64,000 nucleotides of DNA from a phage. The stretch lies in the NCBI GenBank assembly GCA_025812035.1, contig GCA_025812035.1_4719.1; one strand, 5' to 3'. The translations under genes and the position numbers were made by a program. Shown here in pieces: positions 26,907 to 50,336 of this stretch (positions are counted from its first letter, which is position 1; every line of letters starts with the position of its first letter). Below the pieces are notes generated by a model. The model worked only from the letters and a program-made list of their open reading frames with translations. It did no database searches and was not told the origin of the DNA.

Positions 26907-29900
26907 TTACTTGTAGGCACCGCAATGTGCTTTGATGAGGAAAAGCACCGCTTGCATCGGCTTATTGAACTGCTGCCATAACGTCAATGCAGGATGGAAC
27001 AACCAATCTTCCAGGCCAAGAACAATACCATAGTTAACGACATTATTAACATCGTTCTCAACGTTGAGTTCGCTATCCAGGAATTTATCGATTGAACGCA
27101 GGGTCTGCATGGCGTTGTCAGCGATGAGCCAAGCCTCATGCGCTTCACGAGCCGCACGTAGCAACGCATCCAGCTCGCTGACGCTGGCTACCGGTAATTC
27201 CTCGCTGGTGAGGTCGTCAGAAACCGTGAAGCTGCGGTTGATACCGGTATAGATCCACTGCATCAGTTTCGCTGCTTCCTCGTTCGGGTTGTTACGCGTT
27301 GTCGCATAGGTTGCGCTCACCTTCACGATATGCGTTTCACCGAGATACGCTTTGGAACCAACACCTTTACGATCGCTGTCTTTCCATGGCTGTACGGTAG
27401 CAACCATAAGCTTATCCCATTTCTGGATAGGAATACGCTTCAGACCAACAACCGAGCCAGTGGACGTGTCGGACTGGTTGCTCTTCCGCACTTCGCTGAG
27501 CTCACGATCGATAGCGACGATTAATTCGCGTGCCATGTTACCGAGCATTTTGATTTCACCCAACGCAGCGATGAGTTTCTTCACATCGGTAACAGGCTCA
27601 CCACCGATGGTAAGATGACGGATGAATCGTTTCAGAATAATCCGTTCCGCAGCTGGGTTACCGTGACGCGCTTTAGCTAGTGCTTGCTGTGTTTCGGCGA
27701 ACAGCTTATCCCATGGAGCCGTAGCAGCAGTGTAGTAACGGTGATTGGTTTCGATCCAATTCCCGATACGGTTAACCGCGTTCTTAACGGTATCCATGAA
27801 TCCTTCCATCGCGATTTCGGTAGCTTCAACGTTACCCCGGAAGTTATCAGGACCGATCTCGCGTGCCGCTACCAGAATACCTTCCACCGCACTTACCGCA
27901 TGGCGACCGATAGCCAGATTTCGCTGTGCTTCTTCAGCACGCTCAACGAATTCCACCACAGCCGGATCGTCAACGATTTCCGCTTCGGCAACAGCACGTG
28001 TACCTGCATCGCCTTCCAACGTCTCGATGGTGACAACAGGATCGTTTTCACCAGCAACGTCCTGATACTCTTCCTGTTTGAGATCGCCGTTATCAGCCGC
28101 TGCGACAGCGGTGAGTATACGGACAGTAACATCGCCGAGTTCTTTCGCTGCGAATCCGTAGACGGTGCATGCTGTTGTCGCAAAGTTCATCAGCGTACGT
28201 GTACGTTTAACGATGTAACCAACACCATAATCGCTACCGCTCTTATCGATGTCGCGGATTAACTGTTCAGCCGTCTCCTGAAGTTGAGTAGCTGCTTTCA
28301 GAAGGTTTTCGTCAAACAGTTTCGTTGATGCACTGATCAGCATTTCAACGCTGACATTGGACGGCACAGCATCGTCCTGCTGTTTCATGGCGCTAAGTTC
28401 GTCACGGAACTTACGAATACCGTCTAAAGCGGCATCGGCGTTATGTCCGAATGCGGCTACGCCCGACATTGTTGTTGCTGACAACATATCCGAATCGGCG
28501 TTTGGACTTTCGCCTTCTTTAAGATCCTTCAATTGGTCGAAGAATTTACGGGACGCGTCGGCAATACGTTTACTGTCTTTGACTGCGTTTACGATTTTAT
28601 CGACCGATTTAGCATCGTTCGCAAGCAGCGTATCGAGCTTGTTCCATTCGACGTCGACTTTCTTCGCATCCGCAGTATTACTCGGCGGAGGAAGCAGTTT
28701 CATCACTGGCGTTGTGCGTTGTTCTTTGGTGAGCTTACCAGCCTTCTCATCGATTTTCTTTTTACTAACACCGAAGAGCTTTCTTAGGCGTGCTACGAGG
28801 GCTTTTAAGAACTTCACAACCGCTTCGTAAACCGACTTCAGGATCTGCTTAAAGCGACCTGGCTGTTTTTCCCCGTCTTCCAGATTGAGATCGCTGTTCA
28901 ATGCGATATCAAGCTGTTTGTACGATTCCATGATGTATTCGTCTTTGATTTCAGGACGAATCTCGAAGCTTTCCATCGGACCTTCAGCCGGACGGAATTC
29001 CATTTTCAGTTCGCCTTGCAGGGTAGGGTCGACAATAGCGATAGCTTCGCCCTGGCCATCCGCATTAAAACGTTCAGCGTAACGAGTACGACGAACGATA
29101 ACGCTCTTATCCCCTTCAAAACGACGTACCACCATGGTGCCTGGAATGTACGGTTGTTCTGTTTCGATAACGGTAACGCCTGTTTCACCTTCACCGAGAA
29201 TAACGGAGGCCTGCTGCTCAACAACAGGAACATCTAAAACACCACGTGCTTCCAGCTCTTGACGAATTTCGAACGACTCTTGTTTCAGATCTTCATCTTC
29301 TTCGTTTTCGTCGTCTTCATCGTCGTCACCTTCGGTGTTTTCATTACCCTCGGTGGTTGTGGTGTCTGTGTTGGTAGGTTCTTCGGACGCAGGTTCGGTG
29401 GTGCTGTCTTCGGCAGGCGTTTCGTCAGCGTTATCGACGTCAACATCACCTTGCAGCTCCGTTTCTTGAGCAACTGCTTCGGCTTTCTGCTCGCCGGTAT
29501 TGCCGTCATTAGCGTCAACAACCGGTTGTTCGTCAGCGACGGTATCTTCAACCTTTTCTACTTTCTCCACGACGCGTTTAATCACGGTGACTTTGATGGG
29601 TTCTTCCGTCGTTTTGGTTTCTGGTGTTACATCGGCTGCCGTGGCTGTTGTTTCAGCTGCAGGTTCTTCTTTTTCCGGTTCGACGACATTACCTTTAACC
29701 CCTTGGGTGGTTTCTGCCGGTTGCGCAGCCTGTTCGATTTGTGCCGGGTTGGTTGGATCGATGGCGTTAGCCGCATCCTGAATCTTGTTCTTCAGGTTGT
29801 CGCGGTCAGCGCTGATGGTCGGGTCATTGGTCACTTTCGGTGCCGGTGTTTCGGTCGGTGCGTTTGCCGGATACGGGTTCTTCGGTTCTTCGCCTGGTGC

Positions 29901-30272
29901 GGTCGGTACCGCGATCAGAACGAACGGCTGAACATCGTTACCGTCTTCCATGGTTACACCGCCGTTACTTGGTGTGAAACGAATGCGCAAACTCCCATCA
30001 ATAGGACGGGTTACAATAACAGCACGTACGACGTCTTCACCGTTCTCATCCGTGCTACGAATCACACGAACGGCATCATCAACGGTGGTCCCTTCCTCGA
30101 GCGTATCTGATTCGATCGTCGCTTCGATGCTGTCTGGCCGTGCCGCGGTAGGTAACGCGATCACTTGCTCTTCTTTATCGGTAGAAAGCGTTGCTTTGAC
30201 TTCGATAGGGGTATCGCCGCTTTCCAGGTTAAGATGCGACTTACGCATCAGATCAGCTAACGATTTTTTCAT
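26907..30272 (-). CDS. large virion-type protein (1121 aa) with internal acidic Thr/Glu/Asp-rich linker; member of the EGF-helix paralog family
   Basis: ORF track; AAGAGGAA SD; ~120-aa low-complexity acidic segment (…TEPASEEPTNTDTTTTEGNENTEGDDDEDDENEEDEDLK…); core ESFEIRPEIKDEYIMESYKQLDIAL…VYEAVVKFLKALVARLRKLFG resembles the paralogs at 30.3-36.9 kb. Confidence 0.6.
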   Translation of the reverse strand: MKKSLADLMRKSHLNLESGDTPIEVKATLSTDKEEQVIALPTAARPDSIEATIESDTLEEGTTVDDAVRVIRSTDENGEDVVRAVIVTRPIDGSLRIRFTPSNGGVTMEDGNDVQPFVLIAVPTAPGEEPKNPYPANAPTETPAPKVTNDPTISADRDNLKNKIQDAANAIDPTNPAQIEQAAQPAETTQGVKGNVVEPEKEEPAAETTATAADVTPETKTTEEPIKVTVIKRVVEKVEKVEDTVADEQPVVDANDGNTGEQKAEAVAQETELQGDVDVDNADETPAEDSTTEPASEEPTNTDTTTTEGNENTEGDDDEDDENEEDEDLKQESFEIRQELEARGVLDVPVVEQQASVILGEGETGVTVIETEQPYIPGTMVVRRFEGDKSVIVRRTRYAERFNADGQGEAIAIVDPTLQGELKMEFRPAEGPMESFEIRPEIKDEYIMESYKQLDIALNSDLNLEDGEKQPGRFKQILKSVYEAVVKFLKALVARLRKLFGVSKKKIDEKAGKLTKEQRTTPVMKLLPPPSNTADAKKVDVEWNKLDTLLANDAKSVDKIVNAVKDSKRIADASRKFFDQLKDLKEGESPNADSDMLSATTMSGVAAFGHNADAALDGIRKFRDELSAMKQQDDAVPSNVSVEMLISASTKLFDENLLKAATQLQETAEQLIRDIDKSGSDYGVGYIVKRTRTLMNFATTACTVYGFAAKELGDVTVRILTAVAAADNGDLKQEEYQDVAGENDPVVTIETLEGDAGTRAVAEAEIVDDPAVVEFVERAEEAQRNLAIGRHAVSAVEGILVAAREIGPDNFRGNVEATEIAMEGFMDTVKNAVNRIGNWIETNHRYYTAATAPWDKLFAETQQALAKARHGNPAAERIILKRFIRHLTIGGEPVTDVKKLIAALGEIKMLGNMARELIVAIDRELSEVRKSNQSDTSTGSVVGLKRIPIQKWDKLMVATVQPWKDSDRKGVGSKAYLGETHIVKVSATYATTRNNPNEEAAKLMQWIYTGINRSFTVSDDLTSEELPVASVSELDALLRAAREAHEAWLIADNAMQTLRSIDKFLDSELNVENDVNNVVNYGIVLGLEDWLFHPALTLWQQFNKPMQAVLFLIKAHCGAYK

Positions 30273-30287
30273 AAAGCGTTATTCCTC

Positions 30288-31394
30288 TTAAAAGTAGTAT
30301 TTCAGCGCCTCGCGAGAGACCTCAAGCATAGCCGCCGTTGAATTCGTAAAGAACTCGGCATAGCCCACAAGCGGCACCTTGATCCACGCGGTATACGCTG
30401 TAAGGTATCGAGAAAGGGCTACCATAGCATCATCAGAAGCAGTAGCAACTGACAACTGACCTTGTTGACGATAAACGTCGTTAAGTTTTGCTTGTAGATT
30501 CCCTGCAATTTCGAGTAACTCGTTGGCGTACTTTTTACGGTGGTAAGCAACCAGCAAATCAACGCCCGTATTTACCGACTCGAGTAGAACACCAACTTGT
30601 TCTAATGATGGCATCGTAACCACCATATCTCGTTCAACGGATGGTATATCCTGAACTTCAAACCGCGCCGATTGAATAGCGAGGGATTGTTGAATTGAAC
30701 CAGAACCCGAGGTGGTAACCTGATCGAGTCGCAACATACGGTTACCCAGTAACGTGACGTTGACGAGTCTCGATTCGTTCAGTGTGTTGTAGACTTTATA
30801 CAGTAACGTATACGCATCACGGTTAATCACATCGATTAATGCGGTATCCGTCTGTTTTAAGATAATGTCGAGTGCTCTATCTAACGTATTAGCGAACTGC
30901 TTGAAATCGTCACGGAACGACGAAGACAAGAGATATTCAGCGATTGCTAAATTCTGCTTGTATAACGTATTCCCGGTTGTGAAGTCGAACCCAAAACTGT
31001 TTCCATACCGTAGGTGCGGAGCCAGCGTCGACGATGCTTCGAAGCTTTGCGCGATGGGTTTACGACCAACGGCTTTTGTATAATGGCGACGGATGTTACT
31101 GAGTTCGAGCTGTAGTGCGCGACTACGATCGATAAACCGTGCGATAAAAGCAGTAATATTCCGCAACGTTGTCCAGATTGCATCAATGATGGCTTTGATG
31201 ATTTTCATCGCAAGTTGACTGTGCGATTCCATCGTGAGGAGATCAGCACTTTCTGTGGTGTAACCGGTTACCTGGATACCACCTGCTTGCTGATAAATAA
31301 GCTGGTGAATTTCTCGTTGCGTTGCTGTCTCTGGTACAGGTAATGTCTTTAACAAGCTTAACGCTTGAATCTGTCCGTCATAGGTCTGCAGCAT
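30288..31394 (-). CDS. paralogous virion (inner-body/ejection-like) protein 1 (~368 aa)
   Basis: ORF track 30288..31457; ATG 31392-31394 with GAGGAAA SD; amphipathic KIIKAIIDAIWTTLRNITAFIARFIDR segment as in neighbours. Confidence 0.55.
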   Translation of the reverse strand: MLQTYDGQIQALSLLKTLPVPETATQREIHQLIYQQAGGIQVTGYTTESADLLTMESHSQLAMKIIKAIIDAIWTTLRNITAFIARFIDRSRALQLELSNIRRHYTKAVGRKPIAQSFEASSTLAPHLRYGNSFGFDFTTGNTLYKQNLAIAEYLLSSSFRDDFKQFANTLDRALDIILKQTDTALIDVINRDAYTLLYKVYNTLNESRLVNVTLLGNRMLRLDQVTTSGSGSIQQSLAIQSARFEVQDIPSVERDMVVTMPSLEQVGVLLESVNTGVDLLVAYHRKKYANELLEIAGNLQAKLNDVYRQQGQLSVATASDDAMVALSRYLTAYTAWIKVPLVGYAEFFTNSTAAMLEVSREALKYYF

Positions 31395-32679
31395 TGCTGG
31401 TTTCCTCAAGTTCGAGATGCGCGTCAAGATAATCATTAAGACCATCGATGACGTCACAGACAGTTAACAGGAATCGGGCAAAAGCGACCGCCTGGAAGCC
31501 GACGACGTTACGCGCGATACCCACACGTTGAACGATGGCGGATGATGCGGTATCGCTGCTGTCCATCTGTTGTAGCAAACGCTCGTAAGGTTGAATCCAT
31601 TCGTCCTGGTCGGCAAGGCTTGCTTCAAGACAACGTTTGAATTCCAACTGTCGTAGCGTAGACCATAACGTACTTAGTGCGTTGATTATCGCGTTGGTTC
31701 CGTCGATAACATCGTTTAACGGTAAGAAACGGAATCCGTCTTTTGCTGATTGGAACGGTGCAGCTTCCCACACAACGCTGAACTGCGTTCCTGTTGCGTC
31801 TTCGATGTTGTGTAATTTAAGATAGGAAGCACCGACGGGTACGTCAACGACGATATCGTCTGTTCCGATAGACGTTAACGGCTTCTCGCATAACGCATCG
31901 TTGATGACCTCGAGAATATTCTCCCAGCACGCTTCGTTCTCCGCTGCGATACCTTCTTTGTTATCCGCTGACGGCGCTTTTAGTAGCTTCATTAATAACG
32001 GATCAAGTTGACGGTGCCATGTTGCGAGTATTCCCGTGTTCGTTACGATGTTTTCTGCTGTTTGCTGTAAATCAGCAATACTGCTTACCGCACCCCCTTT
32101 CGGATGAAGATATCGCCAGTTGTAAGGAAAGTTCTCCCAGAATGCGTTATCTTCATTAACGTCGTATTCGGTAATGCTTTTCAGCTTAGCCGCTTTCTTT
32201 AATAACGGCTTCACCTGACGAACGAATCGACGGTAACAGCGATTACAGATATCGATCGCGTAGCGGTATAGCTCATTCATGTAAAGCCATAACGCTCGGG
32301 TTGCTTCTTTTGCGGTCTGGTCAAAACTTTCCATGTTCAGACTCATTCCGTTGGAAGTCTCCTCTTCCATACCCTCGATGATTTGGTTTGGATCCATTCC
32401 CATCCCAGCCGCTGCGGTTGATGCGATATGCTTGATGGTGTTGATATCGCGTTCTTCAACCTCAGTCATGTTTGGGACAATATCCAGCCTGAGTTTATTT
32501 AGTGTTTGAAGATGTTGTTCACCTTCTTTCATCACCGTGTTTGTTTCGTCGATTGAGTGAAACTGATTCTCAATATTACCGGCGTCGAGAATATTGCCAG
32601 CGATACCGAACGATTCTACAGGTTCATCATCAATCCCTTGAAACAACGATGACATGGGTTGTTGCATCACGTTTTCCAT
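31378..32679 (-). CDS. paralogous virion (inner-body/ejection-like) protein 2 (433 aa)
   Basis: ORF track; GGAG SD; shared core HIASTAAAGMGMDPNQII…MESFDQTAKEATRALWLYMNELYRYAIDI. Confidence 0.6.
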   Translation of the reverse strand: MENVMQQPMSSLFQGIDDEPVESFGIAGNILDAGNIENQFHSIDETNTVMKEGEQHLQTLNKLRLDIVPNMTEVEERDINTIKHIASTAAAGMGMDPNQIIEGMEEETSNGMSLNMESFDQTAKEATRALWLYMNELYRYAIDICNRCYRRFVRQVKPLLKKAAKLKSITEYDVNEDNAFWENFPYNWRYLHPKGGAVSSIADLQQTAENIVTNTGILATWHRQLDPLLMKLLKAPSADNKEGIAAENEACWENILEVINDALCEKPLTSIGTDDIVVDVPVGASYLKLHNIEDATGTQFSVVWEAAPFQSAKDGFRFLPLNDVIDGTNAIINALSTLWSTLRQLEFKRCLEASLADQDEWIQPYERLLQQMDSSDTASSAIVQRVGIARNVVGFQAVAFARFLLTVCDVIDGLNDYLDAHLELEETSNAADL

Positions 32680-32699
32680 TTGGGACTCCTACGTAGGGA

Positions 32700-32780
32700 A
32701 ATCTTGGCGGGTGATCATGTCCGCCATTTACCTTCTGAATCATTAATTCAGAATGCGGAATATGAAGCAAGGCTTCATAC
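32700..32780 (-). promoter_or_regulatory. structured 5' leader with three consecutive stem-loops upstream of gene 31378..32679
   Basis: GGCGG-GTGATCATGT-CCGCC; TTCTGAAT-CATTA-ATTCAGAA; TGAAGC-AAG-GCTTCA, between the terminator hairpin and the SD. Confidence 0.35.
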
Positions 32781-32818
32781 CCAAGTCAAAAGATAACCGG
32801 ATGTTAACAGCATAATCA

Positions 32819-32850
32819 CCTCCTCCAACCCGTAAGGGAAGGAGGAGGGT
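32819..32850 (-). terminator. hairpin terminator of the CCCTCC family
   Basis: CCTCCTCC-AACCCGTAAGGGAA-GGAGGAGGG; followed on minus by GATTATGCTGTTAACATCC. Confidence 0.55.
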
Positions 32851-32858
32851 TATGGTGG

Positions 32859-34148
32859 TTATGCTTTTTCGGTCACAGCGTTGAAGTATTTCTCTGCAGC
32901 AAATACAGCATCCGCATATTGACGTACGGAGGCACGAAGGATCTTGGTTGACAGTACGGTACTTAAACGCGCCATTTCAGAAACCGCACCCACATAAGGA
33001 CGGATGGTTTCACGATCGGCTTCAGGCAGCTTGTCAAGCATGTCGCCCCACTTCGTTTTGATTTTCATACCGTTGAGTTTAGCGGTACGCTCCACAGAAC
33101 CAGCTAAAGCTTCAACCATGTGGAAATAAGAGGGGTCGATCGTACGGAACACGTTAAGATAGGAAGTTAACGCACCTTTCAGTTCGTTATCATCTTTGAA
33201 AATGTTTGCGTTCTCTATCTCACCGGCCACCGTCATCTCGGCTTCAACACGAATATTTTTCACCAACGCATAGGCTTTAATCGCGTCACGTTCGTTTTCA
33301 ACAGCATCGAGACCTTGAATAACGAATTCCTTCCCACCGCTCTCTGGAAAAACAACTTTATTCAGCGCGGATTTGATCGCCAGCAGGTATTTGTCTAAGA
33401 TAGATGGAAGCAGTGTGATGTCGGTGAGGTCTGCGACCTTTTTATTGATATCAGCTACTTGCTTAAACAATGAATCTACACCGCTTGCGCTTCCAGCGAG
33501 TTGTTCGATATGCTTGCTTGCGAACATGGCATTCGCTGACTTCGCATTAGGGAACATATTGACCATATTTTCAGTGGGCTTATCCAGTTGTTTGATATGG
33601 CGTTCACCTTTATTCACGGCGGTTGCGATGCCGACAATTTTGTTGTATGCGACGACCAGGTTCTTGAACAGTACCTGGAGCAGTTTGAACAGCTGCTCAG
33701 CGATATTTGCAATGATTACCCAAACCGCATATAACGCTTGTGCTGCGCGTTCTTTAAAGCCTTCCAATACAATGGCTTGCCCTTCCACTAACTTATCATT
33801 AGCCTGGAACATGTCTTCATCGGACATCCCCAGGTTTGCTGCTGACGTCGAAGCAATCTGACGGATAAGTGCGACGTCGCTAGGACGCGCTTCCGAGATC
33901 GTTGGTGCGATCATGTACGCTGTATCTTCCAGCGTTGCTGAGGTACGCACTGCGATTTCAGCCAGTTCGCTGGATTCATCGATTGTTTCGTCGGTACGTT
34001 GAATCACCAACTCAACTTCGTCCTCTTCGATTTCTGCGTTAGGGTCGTTCTGCTCCGCCGGAATCGCTGCGAGGAGATCTTCAGCACTCAGTAGAGAGAG
34101 TTCGAATGCGTTTTTATTGATGTTATCAAAAAGAGAAATACGAGCCAT
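32859..34148 (-). CDS. paralogous virion (inner-body/ejection-like) protein 3 (429 aa)
   Basis: ORF track; AAGGAA SD; core APTISEARPSDVALIRQIASTSAANLGM…VLEGFKERAAQALYAVWVIIANIAEQLFKLL. Confidence 0.65.
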   Translation of the reverse strand: MARISLFDNINKNAFELSLLSAEDLLAAIPAEQNDPNAEIEEDEVELVIQRTDETIDESSELAEIAVRTSATLEDTAYMIAPTISEARPSDVALIRQIASTSAANLGMSDEDMFQANDKLVEGQAIVLEGFKERAAQALYAVWVIIANIAEQLFKLLQVLFKNLVVAYNKIVGIATAVNKGERHIKQLDKPTENMVNMFPNAKSANAMFASKHIEQLAGSASGVDSLFKQVADINKKVADLTDITLLPSILDKYLLAIKSALNKVVFPESGGKEFVIQGLDAVENERDAIKAYALVKNIRVEAEMTVAGEIENANIFKDDNELKGALTSYLNVFRTIDPSYFHMVEALAGSVERTAKLNGMKIKTKWGDMLDKLPEADRETIRPYVGAVSEMARLSTVLSTKILRASVRQYADAVFAAEKYFNAVTEKA

Positions 34149-34157
34149 GTTAGTTCC

Positions 34158-35474
34158 TTAACCTTTGGTATAAGCGTTAACGAGAGTGTTGATGAATGAA
34201 GTCAATGCACGAAGATATTGATAAGCGAATTGGTTTTCAAGGCGGTTCTCTTTACCACAAAGTAGAATCGCGCGTTTAACGAGCTTAGGATAGATCTCGA
34301 CGTACGGTTGATAGCTTGTATCAAAATTCTGCTCGTTGAAGCGTTTCATGGTGATTTCCTGGATACGCTCCATGGTGCGAATTTTATTGCGAGAGAACAT
34401 CTCAGAGAAAGCACGTCCACGTTTTGTTACCATCAGCAAATCTTTCGCGAACGTAAGTTGTCGAACACTACGTAATTCGTCAGGTGTTGGCAGGACGTAT
34501 GTTTCTGGATCGCTATCCCATTCAACATCTTCAACGACGATATCCAAGTCAAGGTAGTGTTTAACCGCATCGATGATATTGTCTTTTGACGCATCGAATT
34601 CTTTCAGGAAGACCGCCCCGTTGATGTAACGGATGCGTTTCCCGGAAACCGTTGGAGTGATAACGTCAGCACCTTCCACGGAACCGCGATTTTCCAGTGT
34701 CGATTTGACAGCGTTTAAGAAAGACAGATAATCAACGGGAAGTTTTTCAACCTTATCTAAATGGAAGTCGATGATGTTTAATCCTAACCCATCAATAACC
34801 GAATAGCCGTCCGATTTAAGGAACATCTGATTGAAGGTTTCGATGTTGCTTTTCAGCGCGTCTACACCCCCAACTTTGTTACGGTTAGGGAAAAGCGTCC
34901 GCCACCCCGCTTTAAACGCAACCTCTTTATTTTCCTTGTATTTGCCTTTGGGCATCTGTTCGAGGGCCGCAACGGCTTTCTGAAAATTGCGTGTTTCGTC
35001 GTAAACAAGATGGGTAAGCTTCTCGAAGGCCGCTGCCAGGGTCAGGGCAATATCAACTATGATATCCCAGATCTTTTTCATGGCTTTTACAACGGTGTCC
35101 TTAAACCCTTCAACAACCAAAGCTTCTCCAACTTCAACACGATCGGTTGGAGCTAACAGTGTTTCAGAGGGTAGACCCAAGGCAATCGATGCGGATTCTT
35201 GAACGTTACGAACCAATGCAACGTCGCTGTAATTGGCCGATTCGATCGTCGGGGCAACATCAAAACTGATTTCCCGTAACGCCTCAACAGCAGGGAAAGC
35301 ACGATCAAGCGCATCCTCATGTTCGTCGATTGTCACCAAACGTAATTCAACGCCGTCCGCGTCGATGACTTCAGCTGTCGGTTCCACAGCAAGTGCTTCG
35401 GCAACGACGGGATCTTTTTCAAAAGCTTCAAGGCTAATATCGCCTTGTGTTTTAAATAGTGGTATACGTACCAT
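34158..35474 (-). CDS. paralogous virion (inner-body/ejection-like) protein 4 (~438 aa)
   Basis: ORF track 34158..35498; ATG 35472-35474 with GGAGA SD; N-terminus MVRIPLF parallels MARISLF of protein 3; core APTIESANYSDVALVRNVQESASIALGL…VVEGFKDTVVKAMKKIWDIIVDIALTL. Confidence 0.65.
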   Translation of the reverse strand: MVRIPLFKTQGDISLEAFEKDPVVAEALAVEPTAEVIDADGVELRLVTIDEHEDALDRAFPAVEALREISFDVAPTIESANYSDVALVRNVQESASIALGLPSETLLAPTDRVEVGEALVVEGFKDTVVKAMKKIWDIIVDIALTLAAAFEKLTHLVYDETRNFQKAVAALEQMPKGKYKENKEVAFKAGWRTLFPNRNKVGGVDALKSNIETFNQMFLKSDGYSVIDGLGLNIIDFHLDKVEKLPVDYLSFLNAVKSTLENRGSVEGADVITPTVSGKRIRYINGAVFLKEFDASKDNIIDAVKHYLDLDIVVEDVEWDSDPETYVLPTPDELRSVRQLTFAKDLLMVTKRGRAFSEMFSRNKIRTMERIQEITMKRFNEQNFDTSYQPYVEIYPKLVKRAILLCGKENRLENQFAYQYLRALTSFINTLVNAYTKG

Positions 35475-35521
35475 GTGTTGTCTCCAGTAACAATTCAAAA
35501 GATAAACCAGAACGGCATAAA

Positions 35522-35553
35522 CCCCTCTCCCAACCCGTAAGGGAAGGGAGAGG
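35522..35553 (-). terminator. hairpin terminator of the CCCTCC family
   Basis: CCCTCTCCC-AACCCGTAAGGGAA-GGGAGAGGG; followed on minus by U-rich TTTATGCCGTTCTGGTTTATCTTTTG. Confidence 0.6.
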
Positions 35554-35576
35554 GAATATATCAGTTTATTAACCGA

Positions 35577-36905
35577 TTATTGCTGTGCTGCGTCAGCCGG
35601 TTTCTCAGCCGCCTGGCCGCCGTACTCTTTCAGCATTTTAGCAGCGCCATCCAGTACAGCATTACCTGCCTGAACACCGTACTTCATCAGGCCGGTCTGC
35701 GGATTCACGTAGCAGGAACGTGCGTCTTTCAGAGCAGACAGTACAGCTTGAACACGCTGTTTTTCCTGAGCGGAAACTTCGCCTTTCTTAGACAGATCAG
35801 CTTCCATATCGTCGCCGAATTTAACAGCGTCTTTGAAGCCCTGGGATTTCTTACCGATGTTGCCTTTCAGCGCCAGCAGTTTGTCAGCCAGTACTTCAAC
35901 ACTGCTAACTGCGGCAGCCAGCTGATTCAGAGACAGTACAGTTGCTTCAACTTCTTTCGCTTCACCGGAACGTTCCCAGGTTACTTTACCGTCGTTGGTT
36001 TTGAAACCCCAACCCGCCGGGCCAGCAACGTCAGCAATCGCCGGTGCGTTCAGTTTATCTGCGTACTCGGTGTGGGACTTAGCAACAACGGTGTTGACGA
36101 ATTTATCAGCACGGTCGTCAGCAGCCTTCATTGCTTTCTCGAAGGTGTCAGCGATTTTAGTTGCACCGGTAACCAGATCGTCACCGCCGATATAACCTGA
36201 AACGCCGCTACCCAGTTTAACTTTGGCATTTTTAGCAGCGCCTTTACGTTTGGCGATCATTTCTTTCAGTTTAGCGGCACGTGCTTTCAGTTTGGTTGCG
36301 CCGTCGAAGATACGATCCATGAACTTCACGAAGGTTTCCCAGGAAGTTTTCAGGAAGTTCTTGATGGTTGCCCACAGTTTCTGCCACCATTTTTGTTCTT
36401 CCAGGAAGATCATGTTGGTTGCATCGTAACGGGAAGCGGAGCCACCGAAGCTTTCGAAGGACGGCATGGTTTCCGGCAGTTTGAAACCGATAGTACCACA
36501 CAGGCGTTTCAGGTTACGCATGTGTTCCTGAGCGGTTTGTGCAGACATACCACCGTCTTTCAGGTAGCTTTCGGTTGCAACAACGGTTTCCGTCAGTTCG
36601 TCCATGGCTTCGTCCATGGCTTCTGCGGTTTCGTCGTCTTTTGCAATTTCGATAACAACAGCATCAACCTGCTCGATATCGCCACGAACTTCGATAGCCA
36701 GTTCGGTTTCAGCTGCGGTATCTTCAGCGATTTCAGCGCGTTCGGTCAGTTCAGCTACAACGGTTTCATCATCTGCTGCTGCTGCGGCATCAGCTGCCGG
36801 TTCTGCTTCAACGGTTGCCGCTGCATCCGGATCGATCTCAGCAGCCAGTTGAACCAGCTGTGCGTTAGATGGATTTGCGACAAGACGATCAAAAATAGAA
36901 GGCAT
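35577..36905 (-). CDS. paralogous virion protein 5 (442 aa), very highly expressed by codon usage, Ala/Glu-rich N-terminal region
   Basis: ORF track; AAAGGAAA SD; codon bias like the capsid candidate; core ESFGGSASRY…WWQKLWATIKNFLKTSWETFVKFMDRIF. Confidence 0.65.
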   Translation of the reverse strand: MPSIFDRLVANPSNAQLVQLAAEIDPDAAATVEAEPAADAAAAADDETVVAELTERAEIAEDTAAETELAIEVRGDIEQVDAVVIEIAKDDETAEAMDEAMDELTETVVATESYLKDGGMSAQTAQEHMRNLKRLCGTIGFKLPETMPSFESFGGSASRYDATNMIFLEEQKWWQKLWATIKNFLKTSWETFVKFMDRIFDGATKLKARAAKLKEMIAKRKGAAKNAKVKLGSGVSGYIGGDDLVTGATKIADTFEKAMKAADDRADKFVNTVVAKSHTEYADKLNAPAIADVAGPAGWGFKTNDGKVTWERSGEAKEVEATVLSLNQLAAAVSSVEVLADKLLALKGNIGKKSQGFKDAVKFGDDMEADLSKKGEVSAQEKQRVQAVLSALKDARSCYVNPQTGLMKYGVQAGNAVLDGAAKMLKEYGGQAAEKPADAAQQ

Positions 36906-36948: not shown

Positions 36949-36973
36949 TTAAGTGAACCGTTAGCTCACTTAA
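36949..36973 (-). terminator. AT-rich hairpin overlapping the stop of gene 36970..37500
   Basis: TTAAGTGA-ACCGTTAGC-TCACTTAA, 8-bp stem; weaker than the G+C-rich family. Confidence 0.3.
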
Positions 36974-37500
36974 AAGCCCTTAAAACCCGGTGCCATAGGT
37001 TGCCCAAACACCGCATTCAAAGTACATATGATGTCCTGGATGCCATTGTCCCAATGGAGCCAAGTACGCACCATCTCTTCGTCTGACAACGTGATATAAC
37101 TCATAAGTTTACCGCTGCTTTCCAGACGTTGGTGGGAACTTAATGATTGACGATCTGACCAGTTATCAATCAATTGTCCAGCAATCTGTACGTTCGTGTC
37201 TCGTCTACCCGTATGAATAAACCGTAGCGTATCACGGATAAACTCCAGACTGGTGAAGTTCAGATTTGGGTTATGGCTGTTCATTTCCACCCAGTCGGTA
37301 ATGGGGTACATCAAACGATAAAGGGTGGAAAGAACCTGACGTTCATATTTCCAGTCGTCGAGAGGAGTACCGTCAACCAGACGCTGATACAGACTAACAA
37401 CGTCACGATCGAAGTTCTCTTGGCGTTTTACACCGTTAACAGGAAAACCAAAGAACCCGGTACCGTATAACGTTAAAGGGACGTCACGAAGTGCACTCAT
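36970..37500 (-). CDS. hypothetical protein (176 aa)
   Basis: ORF track; 4-nt overlap with upstream gene. Confidence 0.55.
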   Translation of the reverse strand: MSALRDVPLTLYGTGFFGFPVNGVKRQENFDRDVVSLYQRLVDGTPLDDWKYERQVLSTLYRLMYPITDWVEMNSHNPNLNFTSLEFIRDTLRFIHTGRRDTNVQIAGQLIDNWSDRQSLSSHQRLESSGKLMSYITLSDEEMVRTWLHWDNGIQDIICTLNAVFGQPMAPGFKGF

Positions 37501-43844: not shown

Positions 43845-46800
43845 TTATCTTACGTTAGTACTATTCTGCTGTTCGCTGAACCAACCATAAACCTTGAGAT
43901 CGGTACCGTATTTCAGTGCGATATACGCATTCAGTGCTGCACAGAACAAAGACGCGAATGCCCATACCAGCGAAGGATCGACATCTTCCGTTACCGCCAC
44001 CAGGGTAGCCTCTGGTTCCCATGACGGAGAACTGTCTGTAAACGTCGTGAACCATGCCCGACGTTGTTCTTCAGTGGTAAAGTCGCTATGTGGCTCCAAC
44101 GCTTCTTTTGCCAAACGTCGATATTCGGTCATATGAATCGCGAGAGCCGCTGAGCTATCATATTTGCATTCATAGTTCGGATCAACAGCACAACAGAGTT
44201 CTGCGGAATCCAACAAAGCAAGCGCTTGTTTGATGCTGTCGGTGGTGCCTGCACTATAAAGCTCGATAGACTGCGAAAGCTTTTCACAGAACGCATTTAA
44301 CGCGGCAGGATCGGATACCTGAAGGTCAAGACCTAATGTCCACGGATAGTTACTGAACACACCCGTAAACTGCGGCATAACACCCAACAGATGTTGTCCG
44401 ATTACAGCGCGGTTATAAGTAGCCCGATTATAGACTTGAAACGCGGCCTCCAATGCTTGGTTATAATGACGACGAAGTTCGTCACGCGTGTTGCGGAATC
44501 TGTTCGCCGCGAGACTCGTAGCTGCGACGCTACAAACATCGTAACCAGTGGACGAGAGCACAACGTCGTTAAGATCGAACGCTTCCTGTTTCAACGATCC
44601 ATTAACAGCTACCGCTTCGCTGTTCGCTTTATCGACAACCGTACTCAACGCGTTGATATAACGTTTAGCGCGGACTTCCAACCATTGTGCAATACCGAGA
44701 ATATCTACCGCGGCTTTAGCAAGATCGCGTGCGTTCACGATTTCGTTCTTCAAGGCACCCAACCCTTTATTCTCAGGCGAAGAGGCTTGTTGACGAATCA
44801 TGCTGTTTAACATGGTAAGCAGATTATCCAACTCATGTCCGCTGACCTTGTTACGCGCATCGGTAATCGGCCCTTGCAGGAATTTACGGCAACCATCGTT
44901 GTATCGAATCAGTTTATCCACATCGATCGACTCGTTAGCGGATTCCTTGAACTGATTCTTCAATTCTTCACGGTAATCATGAATTTCACTTGCAAGATTG
45001 TCGACAGTGATACCATCATGTTCGAGAAGAACTTTATTGAAGTTACCTTTCTCGAATGCAAGAGCAAGACCTTCGCGAATCTTAGCGAGTTTATCCTGAT
45101 CGAGTTCACGACCGTTTGATAACTCTTTCACTTCCGAGCTGATTAATGCTGCAACGTTACCCAGATTGTCGGTAACCCCTTTGAATGTCCCCGACCAAAT
45201 CGTTCCCGCTTCAGCATATTTCGCAATGGTCTGAATACCGACGGTATGCAATGACGCTAAACGTTTCTTCGTGCCTTCGGTAAGCAGTGCGTCTTTAGCT
45301 CGCGTAAGCTGGCTGTTATTAGCTTCCGCTTGCTGAATCGCTGCTTTCGCATTTCCATTACGCCAGCTCTTAACCAACCAATCAACCAGACGTTTTAGGA
45401 TGTTGACGGTATATTCCATCGTCCGCCGTAACGTCTCCCACGCGCTTTCAGCGGTATAAATGCCGTACCCTTCCATCGTCAACGCTTTCAAGCTTGTTTG
45501 ACGTGCCAGCCATTCTACCGTTGCAGAGCAAACGTTTACTAATGCTTCCAGGTAGTTGTAATAGACGTCTGTTGCCGACGTTTCGTTGAACTTTGAATGC
45601 AGATAGAACTGATCGTAAAGTTCGTCGTCATCACCGAAGGCATCATAGTTCCACAGTTCTGTATCACAACCTGTGCCGCAGAAGACGTCAGCTGTCGTAA
45701 ACTCTTTAAGCGCTTTAGCGGCGTCATTTGTCAGGAATTTACCTGTTTCAACTACATCGTCGACATTAAGTTTGGGGAGTTCGTCGGTGACCGGCTCTTC
45801 CAACATCAGCATATTGAAGAATGTGCTATACTTGTATCCGAGCCATTTTGGATAGCTGCTTTCAGGGATCGTAGACAGCGGCTTGATTTTCTTGGCTTCA
45901 GCCAACGTGTCTTTTGCGACCTGATATTGGTTTTCCCCAGCCTTGACGCGACGTAATGCTTTTTCTTCCAACTGCTTGAGTTTGGTATGTCGTGCTTGTG
46001 CTGGAGCTTCAACAAGTTTTTGTACGGACCGCATTGCTGATATCGCTTCTTTTAATACGATCATCGGCATACGAACTTTACCGTCGTCGAAACTAAGAGC
46101 GCGAGCGACACGTTTACTTACGACAGGCTTATCATGGATATTTCGTTCCACCCACGATTTGTTTGCGTAAGTTTGAGCGATCTGCTGTTGGATATTTTCA
46201 AGGTATTTCCAGCCGTTGGAAGCTTTGTTATCCAGAAGCGGATTCGGTCCCTTCTTATCGAAAAGTTTCAGAATCGGACCAAAGAAACCTTCCTGTACGA
46301 GTTCGATACGCGTGTATCCGTCAGCCGCTTCGATTTCTTCTTGGGTTTTGTCCCAGAGCTGTTCACTACGGACAGCAGTAGCTGTTTCAGATACCGACAT
46401 AACAAGCTCGGCAACAACTTCAGCGCAGGTCAGTACGGTACGCACGCATTGCAGTAGCATACGCTGGTAAACGATACGTGCGTTTTGTAGACGTGCGATA
46501 ACCGCTAAATAACCGATATTGTCAAGACGTTCGTCGGCTTGAGCAGAGTCAACACGTTCTATCAGTTGTTTCACCAACGCGGCTGTTTCCGGATAATCGT
46601 TCACGACGTCACGCATAATTCGTGATGCGAAAACCGCGGTACCTAAAACGTTAAGAAGTGTTTTACCGTCCCATTCTTTTGGTGTCGCTACCGATTCGGT
46701 AGGGATGAGATTTCCCGCTTGGTCGAAGTACGGCATAAGGACATTGATATCCGTAGACGGTACTGCGGTGACTGCGTTGTACTCTTCATCCGCACCATCG

Positions 46801-47450
46801 TCGCCGGATGGTTGTATAGCGAGTGCCTGTTCAAGGATTTTGCGGTCAACAGCATAAAGCGCTGATAGGGCCTGTGTTACCGCAACCAGATCAACAACCG
46901 GTGACCAGAGCTGTGCGAGTTTATCCTTGTATTTCTGTACAGCAATAACGAGGTCTTCTTTTACGTCAGGATGATTGATTAAACCACCCAACGCTTCATG
47001 GACTGCAGAAAAACGTTCAGAATGCGCTTGAGTTAATGCGACAAAATCGTCAACGTACGATGCATTTTCTTCAAGGCGTGCAAGTTCCTGCTCCAGGAGA
47101 TCTTTTACTTGCGTGGCGGATGCGTTTCTCAACTGTTCCCCGATAATCGCGATGGCTTTATCGACAACACGACAAGCTTCATTGAACCCGGTCGTTGATG
47201 GTAACTCGGTCCATAATGCCAGCGGCTTACCTTCCATTGCGTCAGGAAGGGAGTACGACAGCATTGTTAGTTGCTGACGCGATACCTGTTTATCACGATG
47301 TAGCGTTTCTTTCAACGCCAGAAGCTCATCAAGACCCACACTGCTGGGGATCGTGGGATGTGATACAGCGTTGATGTTTTCTGCTAATGACTCAAGAACC
47401 AATAAACCATTTTCAGCGGTAGAGAAACCTGCTTTAAGGTATTTGTTCAT
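43845..47450 (-). CDS. hypothetical very large protein (1201 aa), probably virion-associated
   Basis: ORF track; GGAG SD; start immediately follows a 12-bp-stem hairpin. Confidence 0.6.
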   Translation of the reverse strand: MNKYLKAGFSTAENGLLVLESLAENINAVSHPTIPSSVGLDELLALKETLHRDKQVSRQQLTMLSYSLPDAMEGKPLALWTELPSTTGFNEACRVVDKAIAIIGEQLRNASATQVKDLLEQELARLEENASYVDDFVALTQAHSERFSAVHEALGGLINHPDVKEDLVIAVQKYKDKLAQLWSPVVDLVAVTQALSALYAVDRKILEQALAIQPSGDDGADEEYNAVTAVPSTDINVLMPYFDQAGNLIPTESVATPKEWDGKTLLNVLGTAVFASRIMRDVVNDYPETAALVKQLIERVDSAQADERLDNIGYLAVIARLQNARIVYQRMLLQCVRTVLTCAEVVAELVMSVSETATAVRSEQLWDKTQEEIEAADGYTRIELVQEGFFGPILKLFDKKGPNPLLDNKASNGWKYLENIQQQIAQTYANKSWVERNIHDKPVVSKRVARALSFDDGKVRMPMIVLKEAISAMRSVQKLVEAPAQARHTKLKQLEEKALRRVKAGENQYQVAKDTLAEAKKIKPLSTIPESSYPKWLGYKYSTFFNMLMLEEPVTDELPKLNVDDVVETGKFLTNDAAKALKEFTTADVFCGTGCDTELWNYDAFGDDDELYDQFYLHSKFNETSATDVYYNYLEALVNVCSATVEWLARQTSLKALTMEGYGIYTAESAWETLRRTMEYTVNILKRLVDWLVKSWRNGNAKAAIQQAEANNSQLTRAKDALLTEGTKKRLASLHTVGIQTIAKYAEAGTIWSGTFKGVTDNLGNVAALISSEVKELSNGRELDQDKLAKIREGLALAFEKGNFNKVLLEHDGITVDNLASEIHDYREELKNQFKESANESIDVDKLIRYNDGCRKFLQGPITDARNKVSGHELDNLLTMLNSMIRQQASSPENKGLGALKNEIVNARDLAKAAVDILGIAQWLEVRAKRYINALSTVVDKANSEAVAVNGSLKQEAFDLNDVVLSSTGYDVCSVAATSLAANRFRNTRDELRRHYNQALEAAFQVYNRATYNRAVIGQHLLGVMPQFTGVFSNYPWTLGLDLQVSDPAALNAFCEKLSQSIELYSAGTTDSIKQALALLDSAELCCAVDPNYECKYDSSAALAIHMTEYRRLAKEALEPHSDFTTEEQRRAWFTTFTDSSPSWEPEATLVAVTEDVDPSLVWAFASLFCAALNAYIALKYGTDLKVYGWFSEQQNSTNVR

Positions 47451-47531: not shown

Positions 47532-50336
47532 TTACGCTAATTTACCGAAACCGGCTTTCTGTAGTTTCTCGTTGATCAGTTTTGCTTCAGCGAAAACATA
47601 ATCACGATATGCGGTAACTAACCCATCCACCCGTGAACGCAAGGCTTCTTCGAAGCTATACCACGCAGCGATTTCACGAATCTGAGCGTTGATATAATCA
47701 ACGGTTGAGCGAAGCTCGGTTGCATTTTCTTGCGGGATGGCTTTCACCTGGCGAGCAACGTCATTTAAACGACGGAACTGTGTTTCGATTTCTTTAAACT
47801 TACTGTCAGCAAGTTTGCTGAATTCGTCACCGGAACGAGTAAATAACAGATAGCTGTTGCCATCAAGTGCGGTCGCTAACTGCTGAAGTACATTGGTGTC
47901 CGGATACACAGGAGTACCGCTTTGCAGTACTTTCTCACCGAATTCCGCGAAGTCCTTCGGCGGTAAGTGTGCAGACGTTGTCAATTCGTTGAAACGGAAA
48001 GTCAGCGAACTATCATACAACATCCGGTACGCTTCCATACCCTGTTTCATGGTACCAGCCAGGTTAGCCAGACGCGGAGCAATTTCACCCTCTTTAGCGC
48101 GCTTCTGGTCTTCTAACGCCCCTTCCAGTTCTTTACACTGGTCGTTCAGATACACGATACGATCGGGACGCAGACGACGCATCTCACGAAGAATAGTATC
48201 CAGCTTACCTTCCTGGAAATAACCTAGCGTTAAAGACGTACACGCTTGTTGAAGACGATCGAACACTGGTAAGGTTACCATCTCTTTACGGATACCATCA
48301 ACAATCGCAGAAACAGCCGAAAGTTTCTGTTCTGTGGTTAATGGAACGTCAGAGACCGACTTGCTGGGCGCACCAACAACGTTACGCATTGCGTCGGTAT
48401 CCTCGGTTTTATCAACCTCTTTACGAACATTCTCGTCGGGAACATAAACGTTCGCATTACGTTTTGCCTGTTTGATGGCATCGCTGGCCGCTTTTTCGGT
48501 GGCCGCTACGCTATCGGCACGTTTCTTCAAGAGTTCAATAATCCAAAGCAACAGACGACGAATCGCAGTGTAGGCTGTCGTGATGATGACGCCGATAACA
48601 GCCATCTTCATGATACCGAACGATTCCATGGTCGGCTCTAACGCCTGGTCAGGCATATACCGTTCACGCAGCTCCAGATAGATCTGCTCATCCGGTTTGC
48701 TGATCTCACCACGATGCGAAGTCCGATAGATGGCTTCGTCAATCTCAACAAGATCTTTACGTGCTTGACGGTCTGTTTCGGTCAAATAAGCGCAGCCGGA
48801 TACGTCGTCTTCAAAACTTTCGAACTTAAAGAAATCGACAACCATCTTGGCAAGCGCCTCTTTCTTAGCAGGATCGAGCGTCTTCGCATCTTCTTTTTGC
48901 TTATCCATTTTTTCCTTGAATTTCTCTTTGTAGTCATTCAAGGGTTTTACCGCTCTTGCCCTCAACGCGTTATAGATAGTTTTCCAACTTTCTTCGCGTT
49001 CTAAGATAAGGAAGTAGTTTTTGAGTTCGAAAGCACGGTAACGTGCAACGAGCTGTTCTACCTGAGCATGAGCGAGTTGTACATCCATCAACCAGCGGGA
49101 CAATGCTGAAACCAAACGACTATAAGCAAGCAGCGTTTGATATGTCAGCTTCATGTGTTTCTCGTAGAGTTCAATATCTCCGCCCCGGATATCAGCTGTC
49201 GGGTTCATCTCCTTAGTTGCTTTGAAGACTTGTTCAGCTTCATTCAACACTTGCTCGAACTTGACTTCATTGAACGCGTTGAATGGTTCGGCCAGTTCAT
49301 CCATCTGTTCGTGAAGCTCGCGAACCCAAGCTTCTTTGTGATTACGAATGACCGCATCAGCGTGGAGCACGGTTTGATGTTTCTGTACCCATTCTTCGAC
49401 GATATCTGCCGCTGCAACAACACCCATGTTGTCGGAAATCAACGGAATAACATTGGAGAGCATACCAGCACACGCTGGTGTTTTCCAATGATCGTTTAAC
49501 GCGTTACGGAACGCAATAATGTCCGTCATAGACGTAGTGATATCGAGGAACGTGTTACCGTTACGACTCATGCTTGCGATATTTGCAGCAAACGTCTTTT
49601 GCTGATCTACAACGAATGGAATCAATAGCATCAACCATTCAGCAACGCATTTTGCTTTGTCTTTCAGGTTTTTGTCGGCTATTTCTTTGAGATTGATTGC
49701 GCTACCATAACCCGCAAGTTCGTTATATACGTCGTTCAAGGTCATCTGCTTATCCAGCATTTCTCTGAAACGCGGATAATCTTCCCCTAACGCATCGATG
49801 ACATCTTGGATAACATCGTCAGTTGTGGCGATAAATTTCTTCGCGTCGACTTTAGATTTCCAGACGTGTCGTACCGCTTTCTTGATTCCTTCAAAGATAA
49901 ACGCCCAGATACGCTTGATGAGTTCCCAGACTTTCTTCGCACCATCGACAAACAGTTTAGAGACTTTGGCAACGAATCCTTCCTGCACCAACTCAACGCC
50001 GTTACGTGATGGAATTTCGGTGAAGAAAGCATCCGGCAGTTGTTTCGGGAACGCATCACCAAGACGCATACGCAATTCGGGTACATCGGCACGAGAAATA
50101 CCACGCGTCGTTAGCTGCTCGTGAAGACGAACGTTTTCTTCACCAGAGGCTACGAATTCGTTAACGTCAAATGAAACCAGTTCTTGATCTTCGGTGGTAA
50201 CGACGCTTGAACCATCACTGGTTTGGATGTCTTCGTCAGGGAATGCCATGAGCATACCGTGACGCATTTCAACCACCCCGTAATCGGTTGCTAAACCGAA
50301 TTCGTTGTGATCGGGGGTAATAACTGGGATACTCAT
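47532..50336 (-). CDS. large virion-type protein (934 aa) with two copies of the EGF/ESF + amphipathic-helix motif
   Basis: ORF track; motifs VQEGFVAKVSKLFVDGAKKVWELIKRIWAFIFEGIKK and MESFGIMKMAVIGVIITTAYTAIRRLLLWIIELLKK resemble the paralog family. Confidence 0.6.
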   Translation of the reverse strand: MSIPVITPDHNEFGLATDYGVVEMRHGMLMAFPDEDIQTSDGSSVVTTEDQELVSFDVNEFVASGEENVRLHEQLTTRGISRADVPELRMRLGDAFPKQLPDAFFTEIPSRNGVELVQEGFVAKVSKLFVDGAKKVWELIKRIWAFIFEGIKKAVRHVWKSKVDAKKFIATTDDVIQDVIDALGEDYPRFREMLDKQMTLNDVYNELAGYGSAINLKEIADKNLKDKAKCVAEWLMLLIPFVVDQQKTFAANIASMSRNGNTFLDITTSMTDIIAFRNALNDHWKTPACAGMLSNVIPLISDNMGVVAAADIVEEWVQKHQTVLHADAVIRNHKEAWVRELHEQMDELAEPFNAFNEVKFEQVLNEAEQVFKATKEMNPTADIRGGDIELYEKHMKLTYQTLLAYSRLVSALSRWLMDVQLAHAQVEQLVARYRAFELKNYFLILEREESWKTIYNALRARAVKPLNDYKEKFKEKMDKQKEDAKTLDPAKKEALAKMVVDFFKFESFEDDVSGCAYLTETDRQARKDLVEIDEAIYRTSHRGEISKPDEQIYLELRERYMPDQALEPTMESFGIMKMAVIGVIITTAYTAIRRLLLWIIELLKKRADSVAATEKAASDAIKQAKRNANVYVPDENVRKEVDKTEDTDAMRNVVGAPSKSVSDVPLTTEQKLSAVSAIVDGIRKEMVTLPVFDRLQQACTSLTLGYFQEGKLDTILREMRRLRPDRIVYLNDQCKELEGALEDQKRAKEGEIAPRLANLAGTMKQGMEAYRMLYDSSLTFRFNELTTSAHLPPKDFAEFGEKVLQSGTPVYPDTNVLQQLATALDGNSYLLFTRSGDEFSKLADSKFKEIETQFRRLNDVARQVKAIPQENATELRSTVDYINAQIREIAAWYSFEEALRSRVDGLVTAYRDYVFAEAKLINEKLQKAGFGKLA

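Follow-up and report, generated by a model that had tools for sequence, protein, structure and literature searches.

Escherichia phage vB_EcoM_Goslar, a nucleus-forming jumbo phage of E. coli (Chimalliviridae), has been described to carry six structurally similar virion proteins, gp53-gp58, of which gp58 is dominant and injected (bioRxiv 10.64898/2026.04.21.720040). All six were found in virions by mass spectrometry, at about 330 (gp53), 70 (gp54), 50 (gp55), 60 (gp56), 50 (gp57) and 2150 (gp58) copies per virion (bioRxiv 10.64898/2026.04.21.720040). They are related to the Pfam family PF12699 ('phiKZ-like phage internal head proteins'; gathering score 27 bits), whose members are among the most abundant virion components of chimalliviruses and are injected with the genome; their role after injection was stated as unknown (bioRxiv 10.64898/2026.04.21.720040). 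A gp58-sfGFP fusion was packaged, injected and remained with the early infection vesicle (bioRxiv 10.1101/2023.09.20.558163). Here, the corresponding locus was analysed in a 64,000-nucleotide stretch of phage DNA (GenBank assembly GCA_025812035.1, contig GCA_025812035.1_4719.1; hereafter the window). Six tandem genes on its minus strand, at positions 26907-36905, are highly likely to encode PF12699 internal head (inner-body/ejection) proteins of a Goslar-like chimallivirus, which would be made as precursors, cleaved and injected.

The internal head proteins of phage phiKZ are proteolysed by the head protease during packaging, reach high copy numbers and are injected; gp92, gp93, gp95 and gp97 are injected together and associate with both the early vesicle and host membrane/lipid proteins. 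Several phiKZ paralogues share the abundance, at ~100-200 copies each, in contrast to the single dominant member of the Goslar type, and two further members, gp162 and gp163, are encoded elsewhere in the phiKZ genome. A 2017 study noted that giant phages differ in how many pfam12699 paralogues they have, and also assigned gp53 and gp54 of phage SPN3US to the family (PMC5694885). These two proteins (paralogue family A ejection proteins) are highly abundant in the SPN3US head, and the prohead-protease cuts mapped in them by mass spectrometry, (E)/GWKETLKDLFER and (E)/SLWDDIK (the slash marks the scissile bond), remove propeptides of 125 and 137 residues (PMC10052503). Cleavage has further been reported for phiKZ gp86 at SQE-122, also from mass spectrometry (PMC5694885), and for phiKZ gp93 at LSLE13/S14 (PMC11297242). 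The internal proteins IPI-III and Alt of phage T4 follow the same logic: the prohead protease gp21 cuts off an N-terminal targeting peptide after Glu, and the mature products, which are often basic, are packaged along with the DNA and then injected. At ~10-20 amino acids, the targeting sequence of T4 is shorter than the N-terminal regions here (56-151, or 823, amino acids). T4 internal proteins have no sequence or fold relationship to PF12699 proteins and, unlike these, have known functions (anti-restriction, ADP-ribosylation).

A megablast search with positions 26907-36905 returned Goslar as the sole match (92% nucleotide identity), and by its sequence the window is that of a Goslar-like E. 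coli chimallivirus. The six genes, which are labelled g plus their start coordinate in the window, are orthologues of Goslar gp53-gp58 (76-97.5% amino acid identity) in conserved order and on the conserved strand. They comprise g35577 (35577..36905; gp58 orthologue, 97.5%; the putative dominant internal head/injected protein), the PF12699 paralogues g34158 (34158..35474; gp57, 94.7%) and g32859 (32859..34148; gp56, 76%), the PF12699-fold paralogue g31378 (31378..32679; gp55, 94%), the PF12699 paralogue g30288 (30288..31394; gp54, 95%), which has a 56-residue N-terminal region, and g26907 (26907..30272; gp53, 95%; 1121 amino acids). By comparison with Goslar, two starts were placed downstream of the start of the maximal open reading frame (ORF), giving 30288-31394 (368 amino acids) and 34158-35474 (438 amino acids); the maximal ORF of g30288 extends to a GTG at 31457, and the Goslar-type start gives a 17-nucleotide overlap with the upstream gene. 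The presence of these proteins in virions would follow from their 76-97% identical Goslar orthologues, and their injection from gp58 alone. Small indels separate the set from its Goslar counterparts. Unlike the other members, g32859 is just 76% identical to its Goslar counterpart and thus stands out from its five sister genes (94-97.5%) as a locally fast-evolving or recombined member.

An earlier reading of the letters and ORFs of the window (the sequence-only reading) had grouped the five genes at 30288-36905, the 1121-amino-acid gene at 26907-30272 and a 934-amino-acid gene at 47532-50336 as a family of virion proteins with a shared core, and had likened the set to the inner-body/ejection proteins of giant phages. 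Its ORF coordinates were confirmed, on the minus strand, and all sequence strings that it quoted were found in the translations. The shared core held for the six tandem genes, as judged by BLAST, Pfam and hidden Markov model (HMM) comparisons, whereas the 934-amino-acid gene is not a full-length paralogue and matches over ~75-90 residues. The likeness to inner-body/ejection proteins was supported by the identity of the genes with Goslar gp53-gp58, the PF12699 domain and fold, virion mass spectrometry of the orthologues and the injection of gp58-sfGFP.

With regard to PF12699, g35577 scored 68.2 bits, above the gathering cut-off, and also matched phrog_5750 ('internal head protein'); residues 800-1121 of g26907 (the last 322 amino acids, scanned alone) scored 29.1 bits, again above the cut-off. 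The score of g34158 was borderline (26.8 bits), those of g30288 (20.5 bits, profile positions 89-384) and g32859 (12.6 bits, weak, profile positions 88-203) lay below the cut-off, and g31378 gave no direct Pfam match, PF12699 included. In BLASTP comparisons, g31378, g32859 and g34158 were mutually related (g34158-g32859, E 3e-19; g31378-g34158, E 1e-8; g31378-g32859, E 3e-8). Because of these links with g34158 and of the published shared fold of the Goslar orthologues, g30288, g32859 and g31378 were tied to PF12699 as well. When an HMM was made from the C-terminal domains of all six, it recovered every one of them and gave no other strong match among 202 ORFs; pairwise identity among the domains was 17-20%. 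On these comparisons, the five tandem genes are true, very divergent paralogues, and so are the last ~400 amino acids of the 1121-amino-acid protein. An exhaustive search of 1.84 billion representatives with the six domains yielded just 15 matches at E <= 1e-3, which indicates that the family is very divergent and the reach of its profiles limited; a profile search with non-Goslar PF12699 seeds gave 6 proteins, not enough for a deeper alignment in structure prediction, and a tblastn search of phage genomes with g35577, a method too insensitive for this family, found Goslar and one weak Pseudomonas phage match. The AlphaFold2 (AF2) model of the g35577 domain, the sole member modelled, was of low confidence (predicted local distance difference test, pLDDT, 57). 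A Foldseek search of BFVD with this model retrieved virion structural proteins of many jumbo phages (probability 1.0, TMq 0.45-0.66), including phiPA3, 201phi2-1, Psa21, Noxifer, Eowyn, Ea35-70 and RAY.

The gene directly upstream of the row, g36970 (36970..37500, minus strand), encodes a homologue of phiKZ gp91/Goslar gp59 (vertex-binding complex; PF25618 PhiKZ_gp91, E 3.4e-46; 99% identical to Goslar gp59) and served as a synteny anchor. The order gp86-(gp64)-gp87-gp88-gp89-gp90-gp91, followed by six paralogues (gp92-gp97 in phiKZ), is common to the window and phiKZ, and in both phages the gp91-type gene precedes six PF12699-type genes, the last of which is enlarged. The sequence-only reading had singled out the number of the genes and their arrangement for attention, but given the matching row of six in phiKZ neither is unusual. 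Identity with phiKZ gp92-gp97, gp162 and gp163 is about 10-20%, with weak to moderate family scores; common to both sets are a propeptide (predicted for the genes here), one or more x-L/M-E-S/G junctions, a Trp/amphipathic helix and a ~300-amino-acid helical domain. SPN3US has two paralogues versus six here. The six-gene set was therefore correctly identified as an already described system and is no new kind of element.

The N-terminal regions of the paralogues are acidic, as the sequence-only reading had noted, with isoelectric points (pI) of 4.05-4.5 and 19-24% Asp plus Glu (residues 1-151 of g35577, for example, have a pI of 4.05), and the C-terminal domains are basic (pI 8.0-9.3) except that of g31378 (pI 4.7). 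Each paralogue carries one copy of the motif [LVMIQF]-E-[GS]-[FYH] at the boundary between the two, and this copy precedes a strongly amphipathic helix (maximal hydrophobic moment 0.57-0.85) with an invariant Trp. The motif occurs 15 times in eight head proteins, compared with 1.0 +/- 1.0 expected from composition-preserving shuffles (n=2000; none of the 2000 reached 15), and 3 times in the window's 31 remaining long ORFs (3.5 expected). The same strings recur in distant family members among the 1.84 billion representatives (PALESF..., ...AMEGIKET...IW). The S/A-x-E sites in which the N-terminal regions had been thought to be rich are not enriched: 41 [SAG]-x-E sites were counted, against 46.8 expected from composition.

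All predicted junctions lie on the minus strand. In g35577, two are predicted, SFE151/SF (codon 36453-36455) and IFLE169/EQKWW (codon 36399-36401), with the Trp helix KLWATIKNFLKTSW. The junction of g34158 would be VVE/GFKDT (Glu codon 35109-35111; helix KIWDIIVDIALTL), that of g32859 VLE/GFKER (33762-33764; propeptide helix APTISEARPSDVALIRQIASTSAANLGM), that of g31378 NME/SFDQT (32329-32331) and that of g30288 TME/SHSQL (31227-31229).

The 1121-amino-acid protein g26907 has an N-terminal extension of 724 amino acids followed by a complete PF12699 unit (residues 725-1121, DNA 26907-28100), an architecture also seen in phiKZ gp97. The extension comprises an acidic low-complexity stretch, two small repeated modules, each ending in ME(D/S), and a helical domain. 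The modules, at residues ~60-110 and ~365-436, read ...VIVTRPIDGSLRIRFTPSNGGVTME/DG and ...GELKMEFRPAEGPME/SF, each closing in M-E, and are separated by the low-complexity stretch, which is rich in Pro, Thr, Glu and Ala. Motif copies are found at QE332/SF, ME434/SF, ME449/SY and AME823/GF (Glu codon 27804-27806). A second PF12699 unit in the middle of the protein was considered and rejected: hhalign of the family against residues 330-830 matched just the part that is already within the profile, and neither a Pfam segment scan nor hhalign gave an independent family match for the middle region.

The cleavage sites mapped in SPN3US gp53 and gp54, phiKZ gp86 and phiKZ gp93 fall on this same junction. 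The SPN3US cuts occur after Glu and right before G-W-K-E-T or S-L-W, at the position that corresponds to VVE/GFKDT...IW here, and SQE-122 of phiKZ gp86 appears in the sequence as ISQE/AVMATIINTLKTW if a numbering offset of 6 residues is allowed for. By analogy with these sites, the acidic front part of each precursor is very probably removed at a conserved site, in agreement with the sequence-only reading, which had compared the N-terminal regions to propeptides removed by head-maturation proteases; cleavage after the junction Glu is likely for the individual sites given above. The exact sites and the role of the propeptide were inferred from the homologous SPN3US and phiKZ positions. The Goslar preprint (10.64898/2026.04.21.720040) is silent on propeptides, the junction motif and processing of gp53-gp58, and the explicit junction consensus, with a predicted scissile bond for each Goslar-type paralogue, is a modest addition of the present analysis.

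Published data on Goslar virions bear on this prediction. Goslar gp212 carries the annotation of a head maturation protease and is among the proteins detected in virions (Goslar Table S4), and residues 1-157 are missing from the major capsid protein. The look-up in Table S4 covered the peptides listed up to those starting 'ELK', and comparisons of peak areas are not conclusive. Among the peptides listed, none came from the capsid propeptide, and the gp53 peptide spanning AME/GF had an area of 541, versus 179,000 for a peptide of the C-terminal domain. The start of a semi-tryptic gp53 peptide, EIRPEIKDEYIMESYK, lies 3 residues beyond E441 of PMESF (the second ME), which points to processing near, but not at, the predicted bond. 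For the Goslar protein gp64, the predicted N-terminus after cleavage is (E)GYGIYTAESAWETLR, and the chain of PDB entry 36za that matches Goslar gp65 begins at K134, 14 residues after E119.

Several observations weigh against the proposed precursor-cleavage-injection model. In the same table, peptides from the propeptide regions of gp58 (areas 4,880 and 9,180) and gp65 (451) were detected among those listed, N-terminal peptides of gp53 were abundant (79,000) and a gp53 peptide spanning IME/SY was present (17,600). Removal of the propeptides would thus be incomplete or fragments would be retained, and not every copy of the motif is cleaved. Propeptide peptides were likewise still partly detectable in SPN3US virions, indicating incomplete clearance (PMC10052503). 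The residues at P3 (V, T, N, I, also A and S) fit the published S/A/G-x-E rule loosely: the rule mapped in SPN3US is A-x-E with Ser favoured at P1', whereas here P3 is more varied and an aromatic P2' conspicuous. The sites in Goslar and the present phage are predictions from those of SPN3US and phiKZ. The protease gene lies outside the window, within which no protease homologue was found, and g31378, g32859 and g30288, taken alone, fall short of the Pfam cut-off. Finally, no inner body was seen in Goslar capsids (bioRxiv 10.64898/2026.04.21.720040), so that 'inner body' should be read as a family label and its structural role as doubtful.

In the favoured model, each precursor would consist of an acidic N-terminal region with a conserved helix, a junction of the form x-[M/L/V/Q/F]-E/[G/S]-[F/Y/H] and a mostly basic helical domain of ~300 amino acids whose first helix is amphipathic and contains the invariant Trp. 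The precursors would enter the prohead, with the propeptide probably acting as a targeting element and charge mask, and the head-maturation protease (S80 family; the counterpart of Goslar gp212, encoded outside the window) would cut after the junction Glu. The mature basic domains may then remain alongside the DNA inside the head, with copy numbers in the thousands for the gp58 orthologue and in the tens to hundreds for the others, and on infection would be injected with the genome and locate to the early infection vesicle. The codon usage of g35577, which had been described as capsid-like, indeed stands apart: its codon adaptation index (CAI) relative to the major capsid gene was 0.66 and its effective number of codons (Nc) 32, compared with CAI values <= 0.39 and Nc values of 43-56 for all of the 24 other genes tested. 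This bias fits the abundance of its product.

The junction module was also found in two head proteins encoded farther upstream, for which the model assumes head proteins of other types with the same arrangement of propeptide, junction and helix. The first, g47532 (47532..50336, minus strand; 934 amino acids), is the orthologue of Goslar gp65 (89% identity) and matches 'gp65' of PDB entries 11fg/11mk over residues 1-934 (1874 bits). Goslar gp65, for which a structure has been determined, was placed in the vertex-binding complex and equated with phiKZ gp86 (bioRxiv 10.64898/2026.04.21.720040). Chain C7 of PDB entry 36za is identical to Goslar gp65 residues 134-934, yet is labelled 'Inner-peripheral baseplate spoke gp32', a name at odds with the sequence that may stem from an error in the entry or in the local table. 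The module of g47532, ~75-90 residues long, consists of a pre-motif helix, the junction VQE119/GF (codon 49980-49982) and the helix KKVWELIKRIWAFIF with KKVWELIKRIW. It was the best match of the window HMMs outside the family (E 1.3e-3 and 7e-5; 202 ORFs), and hhalign against the family gave P 2.8e-4 (probability 41%); both kinds of match were confined to residues ~75-203, and PF12699 was not matched by the protein, whole or in halves. A second site, TME571/SFG (codon 48624-48626), is followed by a transmembrane-like hydrophobic helix and matched weakly (hhalign P 1.7e-3, probability 16%), which leaves little support for the two copies of the core that had been ascribed to this gene. With the junction module as its shared part, this capsid vertex-binding protein is no ordinary or accepted member of the family, contrary to the sequence-only reading. 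The AF2 model of the full-length protein (pLDDT 38.7) was too poor and was left out of the fold search. At least 120 homologues of g47532 were found, and among the matches listed all were Goslar-like sequences with 88-100% identity, too uniform a set for a diverse profile. In 16 Goslar-like gp65 variants, residues 1-145 (propeptide, junction and Trp helix) and 500-934 are almost invariant, and residues 145-500 hold nearly all substitutions.

The second protein, g43845 (43845..47450, minus strand; 1201 amino acids versus 930 in Goslar), is a rearranged homologue of Goslar gp64. It contains the motifs VQE387/GF (codon 46290-46292) and TME660/GY (codon 45471-45473) and gave a marginal motif-HMM match (E 0.09). 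In BLASTP comparisons with Goslar gp064, residues 659-1201 were 92% and residues 1-392 47% identical, and residues 393-658 had no Goslar counterpart, so that a domain of 266 amino acids (45477-46274) lies exactly between two motifs that are 9 amino acids apart in Goslar. Its homologues, 23-30% identical, occur in Erwinia phage pEa_SNUABM_54 (C-terminal end of an 805-amino-acid protein, L004:3462-5879), Klebsiella phage Eowyn and Serratia phage KpGz_1, and the homologous inserted domain in other jumbo phages is again preceded by a motif, STE/GFF. The position of this natural insertion, right between two junction motifs, suggests modules that can be exchanged, with the junctions as their borders. 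The genes flanking g43845 are 89-99% identical to Goslar, versus 47% for its N-terminal 392 amino acids.

Whether the module of the gp65- and gp64-type proteins reflects common descent is less clear. It may be convergent, with unrelated head proteins having acquired the same short signal of cleavage site plus helix for one protease or targeting system, and although we do not favour this explanation, it is a serious contender. The similarity to the family is restricted to about 52-90 residues, neither protein matches PF12699 even as separate segments, the published structural papers on Goslar and phiKZ leave gp65/gp86 out of their lists of PF12699 folds, and the same motif borders unrelated domains in an Erwinia phage protein. 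Set against this, the match goes beyond the scissile site to include the pre-motif helix (G-I/V-S-x-x-D/A...), and an independent comparison of the family profile with phiKZ gp86 gave a local match of the same kind (hhalign P 1.1e-4, probability 57%). phiKZ gp86 moreover has the size and layout of a PF12699 protein, with a ~120-amino-acid propeptide and a ~300-amino-acid helical domain. The module in gp65/gp86 and gp64 gives a hint that the vertex-binding protein diverged from within the family, and fold searches tentatively point to a deeper kinship between gp65 and PF12699. g47532 has a putative N-terminal propeptide, and phiKZ gp86 is cut right before its Trp helix; the mature form of SPN3US gp47, which is syntenic to gp86/gp65 (vertex-binding or 'ejection' protein), starts with a predicted transmembrane helix. 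Unlike the PF12699 proteins, gp86/gp65 are capsid-bound in phiKZ and Goslar and not free in the head, and gp65 has a second domain of ~360 amino acids, which phiKZ gp86 lacks.

The six paralogues could instead act mainly in capsid lining or assembly, as scaffold- or cement-like proteins that bind the inner capsid surface and are injected incidentally, which we regard as unlikely. N-terminal fragments of phiKZ gp93 (14-84) and gp162 (19-134) are seen as ordered, fibre-like minor capsid proteins on the inside of the capsid (PMC11297242), there is no inner-body density in the Goslar or recent phiKZ maps (bioRxiv 10.64898/2026.04.21.720040), and both the abundance of N-terminal gp53 peptides in Goslar virions and the related module in the capsid-bound gp65 would agree with such a role. 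The Goslar capsid model, however, contains no gp53-gp58 fragments among its ordered capsid proteins (bioRxiv 10.64898/2026.04.21.720040), ~2150 copies of gp58 are left unmodelled and this protein is injected, the phiKZ proteins gp92, gp93, gp95 and gp97 reach the early vesicle after co-injection, and the basic C-terminal domains fit contact with DNA. That the shared core is a mere product of composition, acidic and Ala/Glu-rich sequence giving chance x-E-x strings, was refuted by both shuffling and profile matching: the lack of enrichment of [SAG]-x-E sites agrees with it, but the junction motif far exceeds its expected number, always sits at the acidic/basic boundary before the Trp helix and is kept in distant relatives, and the six genes show full-length homology by BLAST, Pfam and HMM.

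As an extension of the precursor-cleavage-injection model, the junction might serve as a switch in the PF12699 paralogues, gp65 and gp64: the acidic propeptide would mask the amphipathic, sometimes transmembrane-like Trp helix, cleavage would turn this helix into the new N-terminus, and on ejection the helices could bind host lipid or become inserted in it and so contribute to building or anchoring the early phage infection (EPI) vesicle. As a corollary, domains flanked by junctions, such as the 266-amino-acid insert of g43845, would be exchangeable cargo cassettes delimited by the protease, and gp86/gp65 a diverged superfamily member. We put this forward as speculation with a rather low chance of being correct.

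A scan of positions 26300-39700 for sigma-70 promoters and terminators was uninformative, promoter-like sites being fewer than in shuffled sequences. A region of ~1.7 kb at ~19684-21547 (minus strand), with two ORFs of 326 and 291 amino acids that gave no PHROG match, has no Goslar counterpart, and window positions 16000-24000 map to 6.3 kb of Goslar (78% coverage). The gene at 50807-52117 (minus strand) is the orthologue of Goslar gp67 (phrog_2767, E 1e-81) and encodes a zinc-metalloprotease-like motif, LHEIGHAF (HExxH), and hydrophobic C-terminal segments, with no Pfam match; its syntenic counterpart in phiKZ, gp84 ('structural head protein'), has LHEIGHC. The exact sequence of the gp65 orthologue was found on a 238,607-bp contig labelled Escherichia coli, and more than 100 clusters of 88-100% identical gp65-type proteins lie on contigs of ~234-247 kb in assemblies of E. 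coli and Salmonella enterica isolates. Sequenced enterobacterial isolates thus seem to carry Goslar-like phages frequently as passengers.

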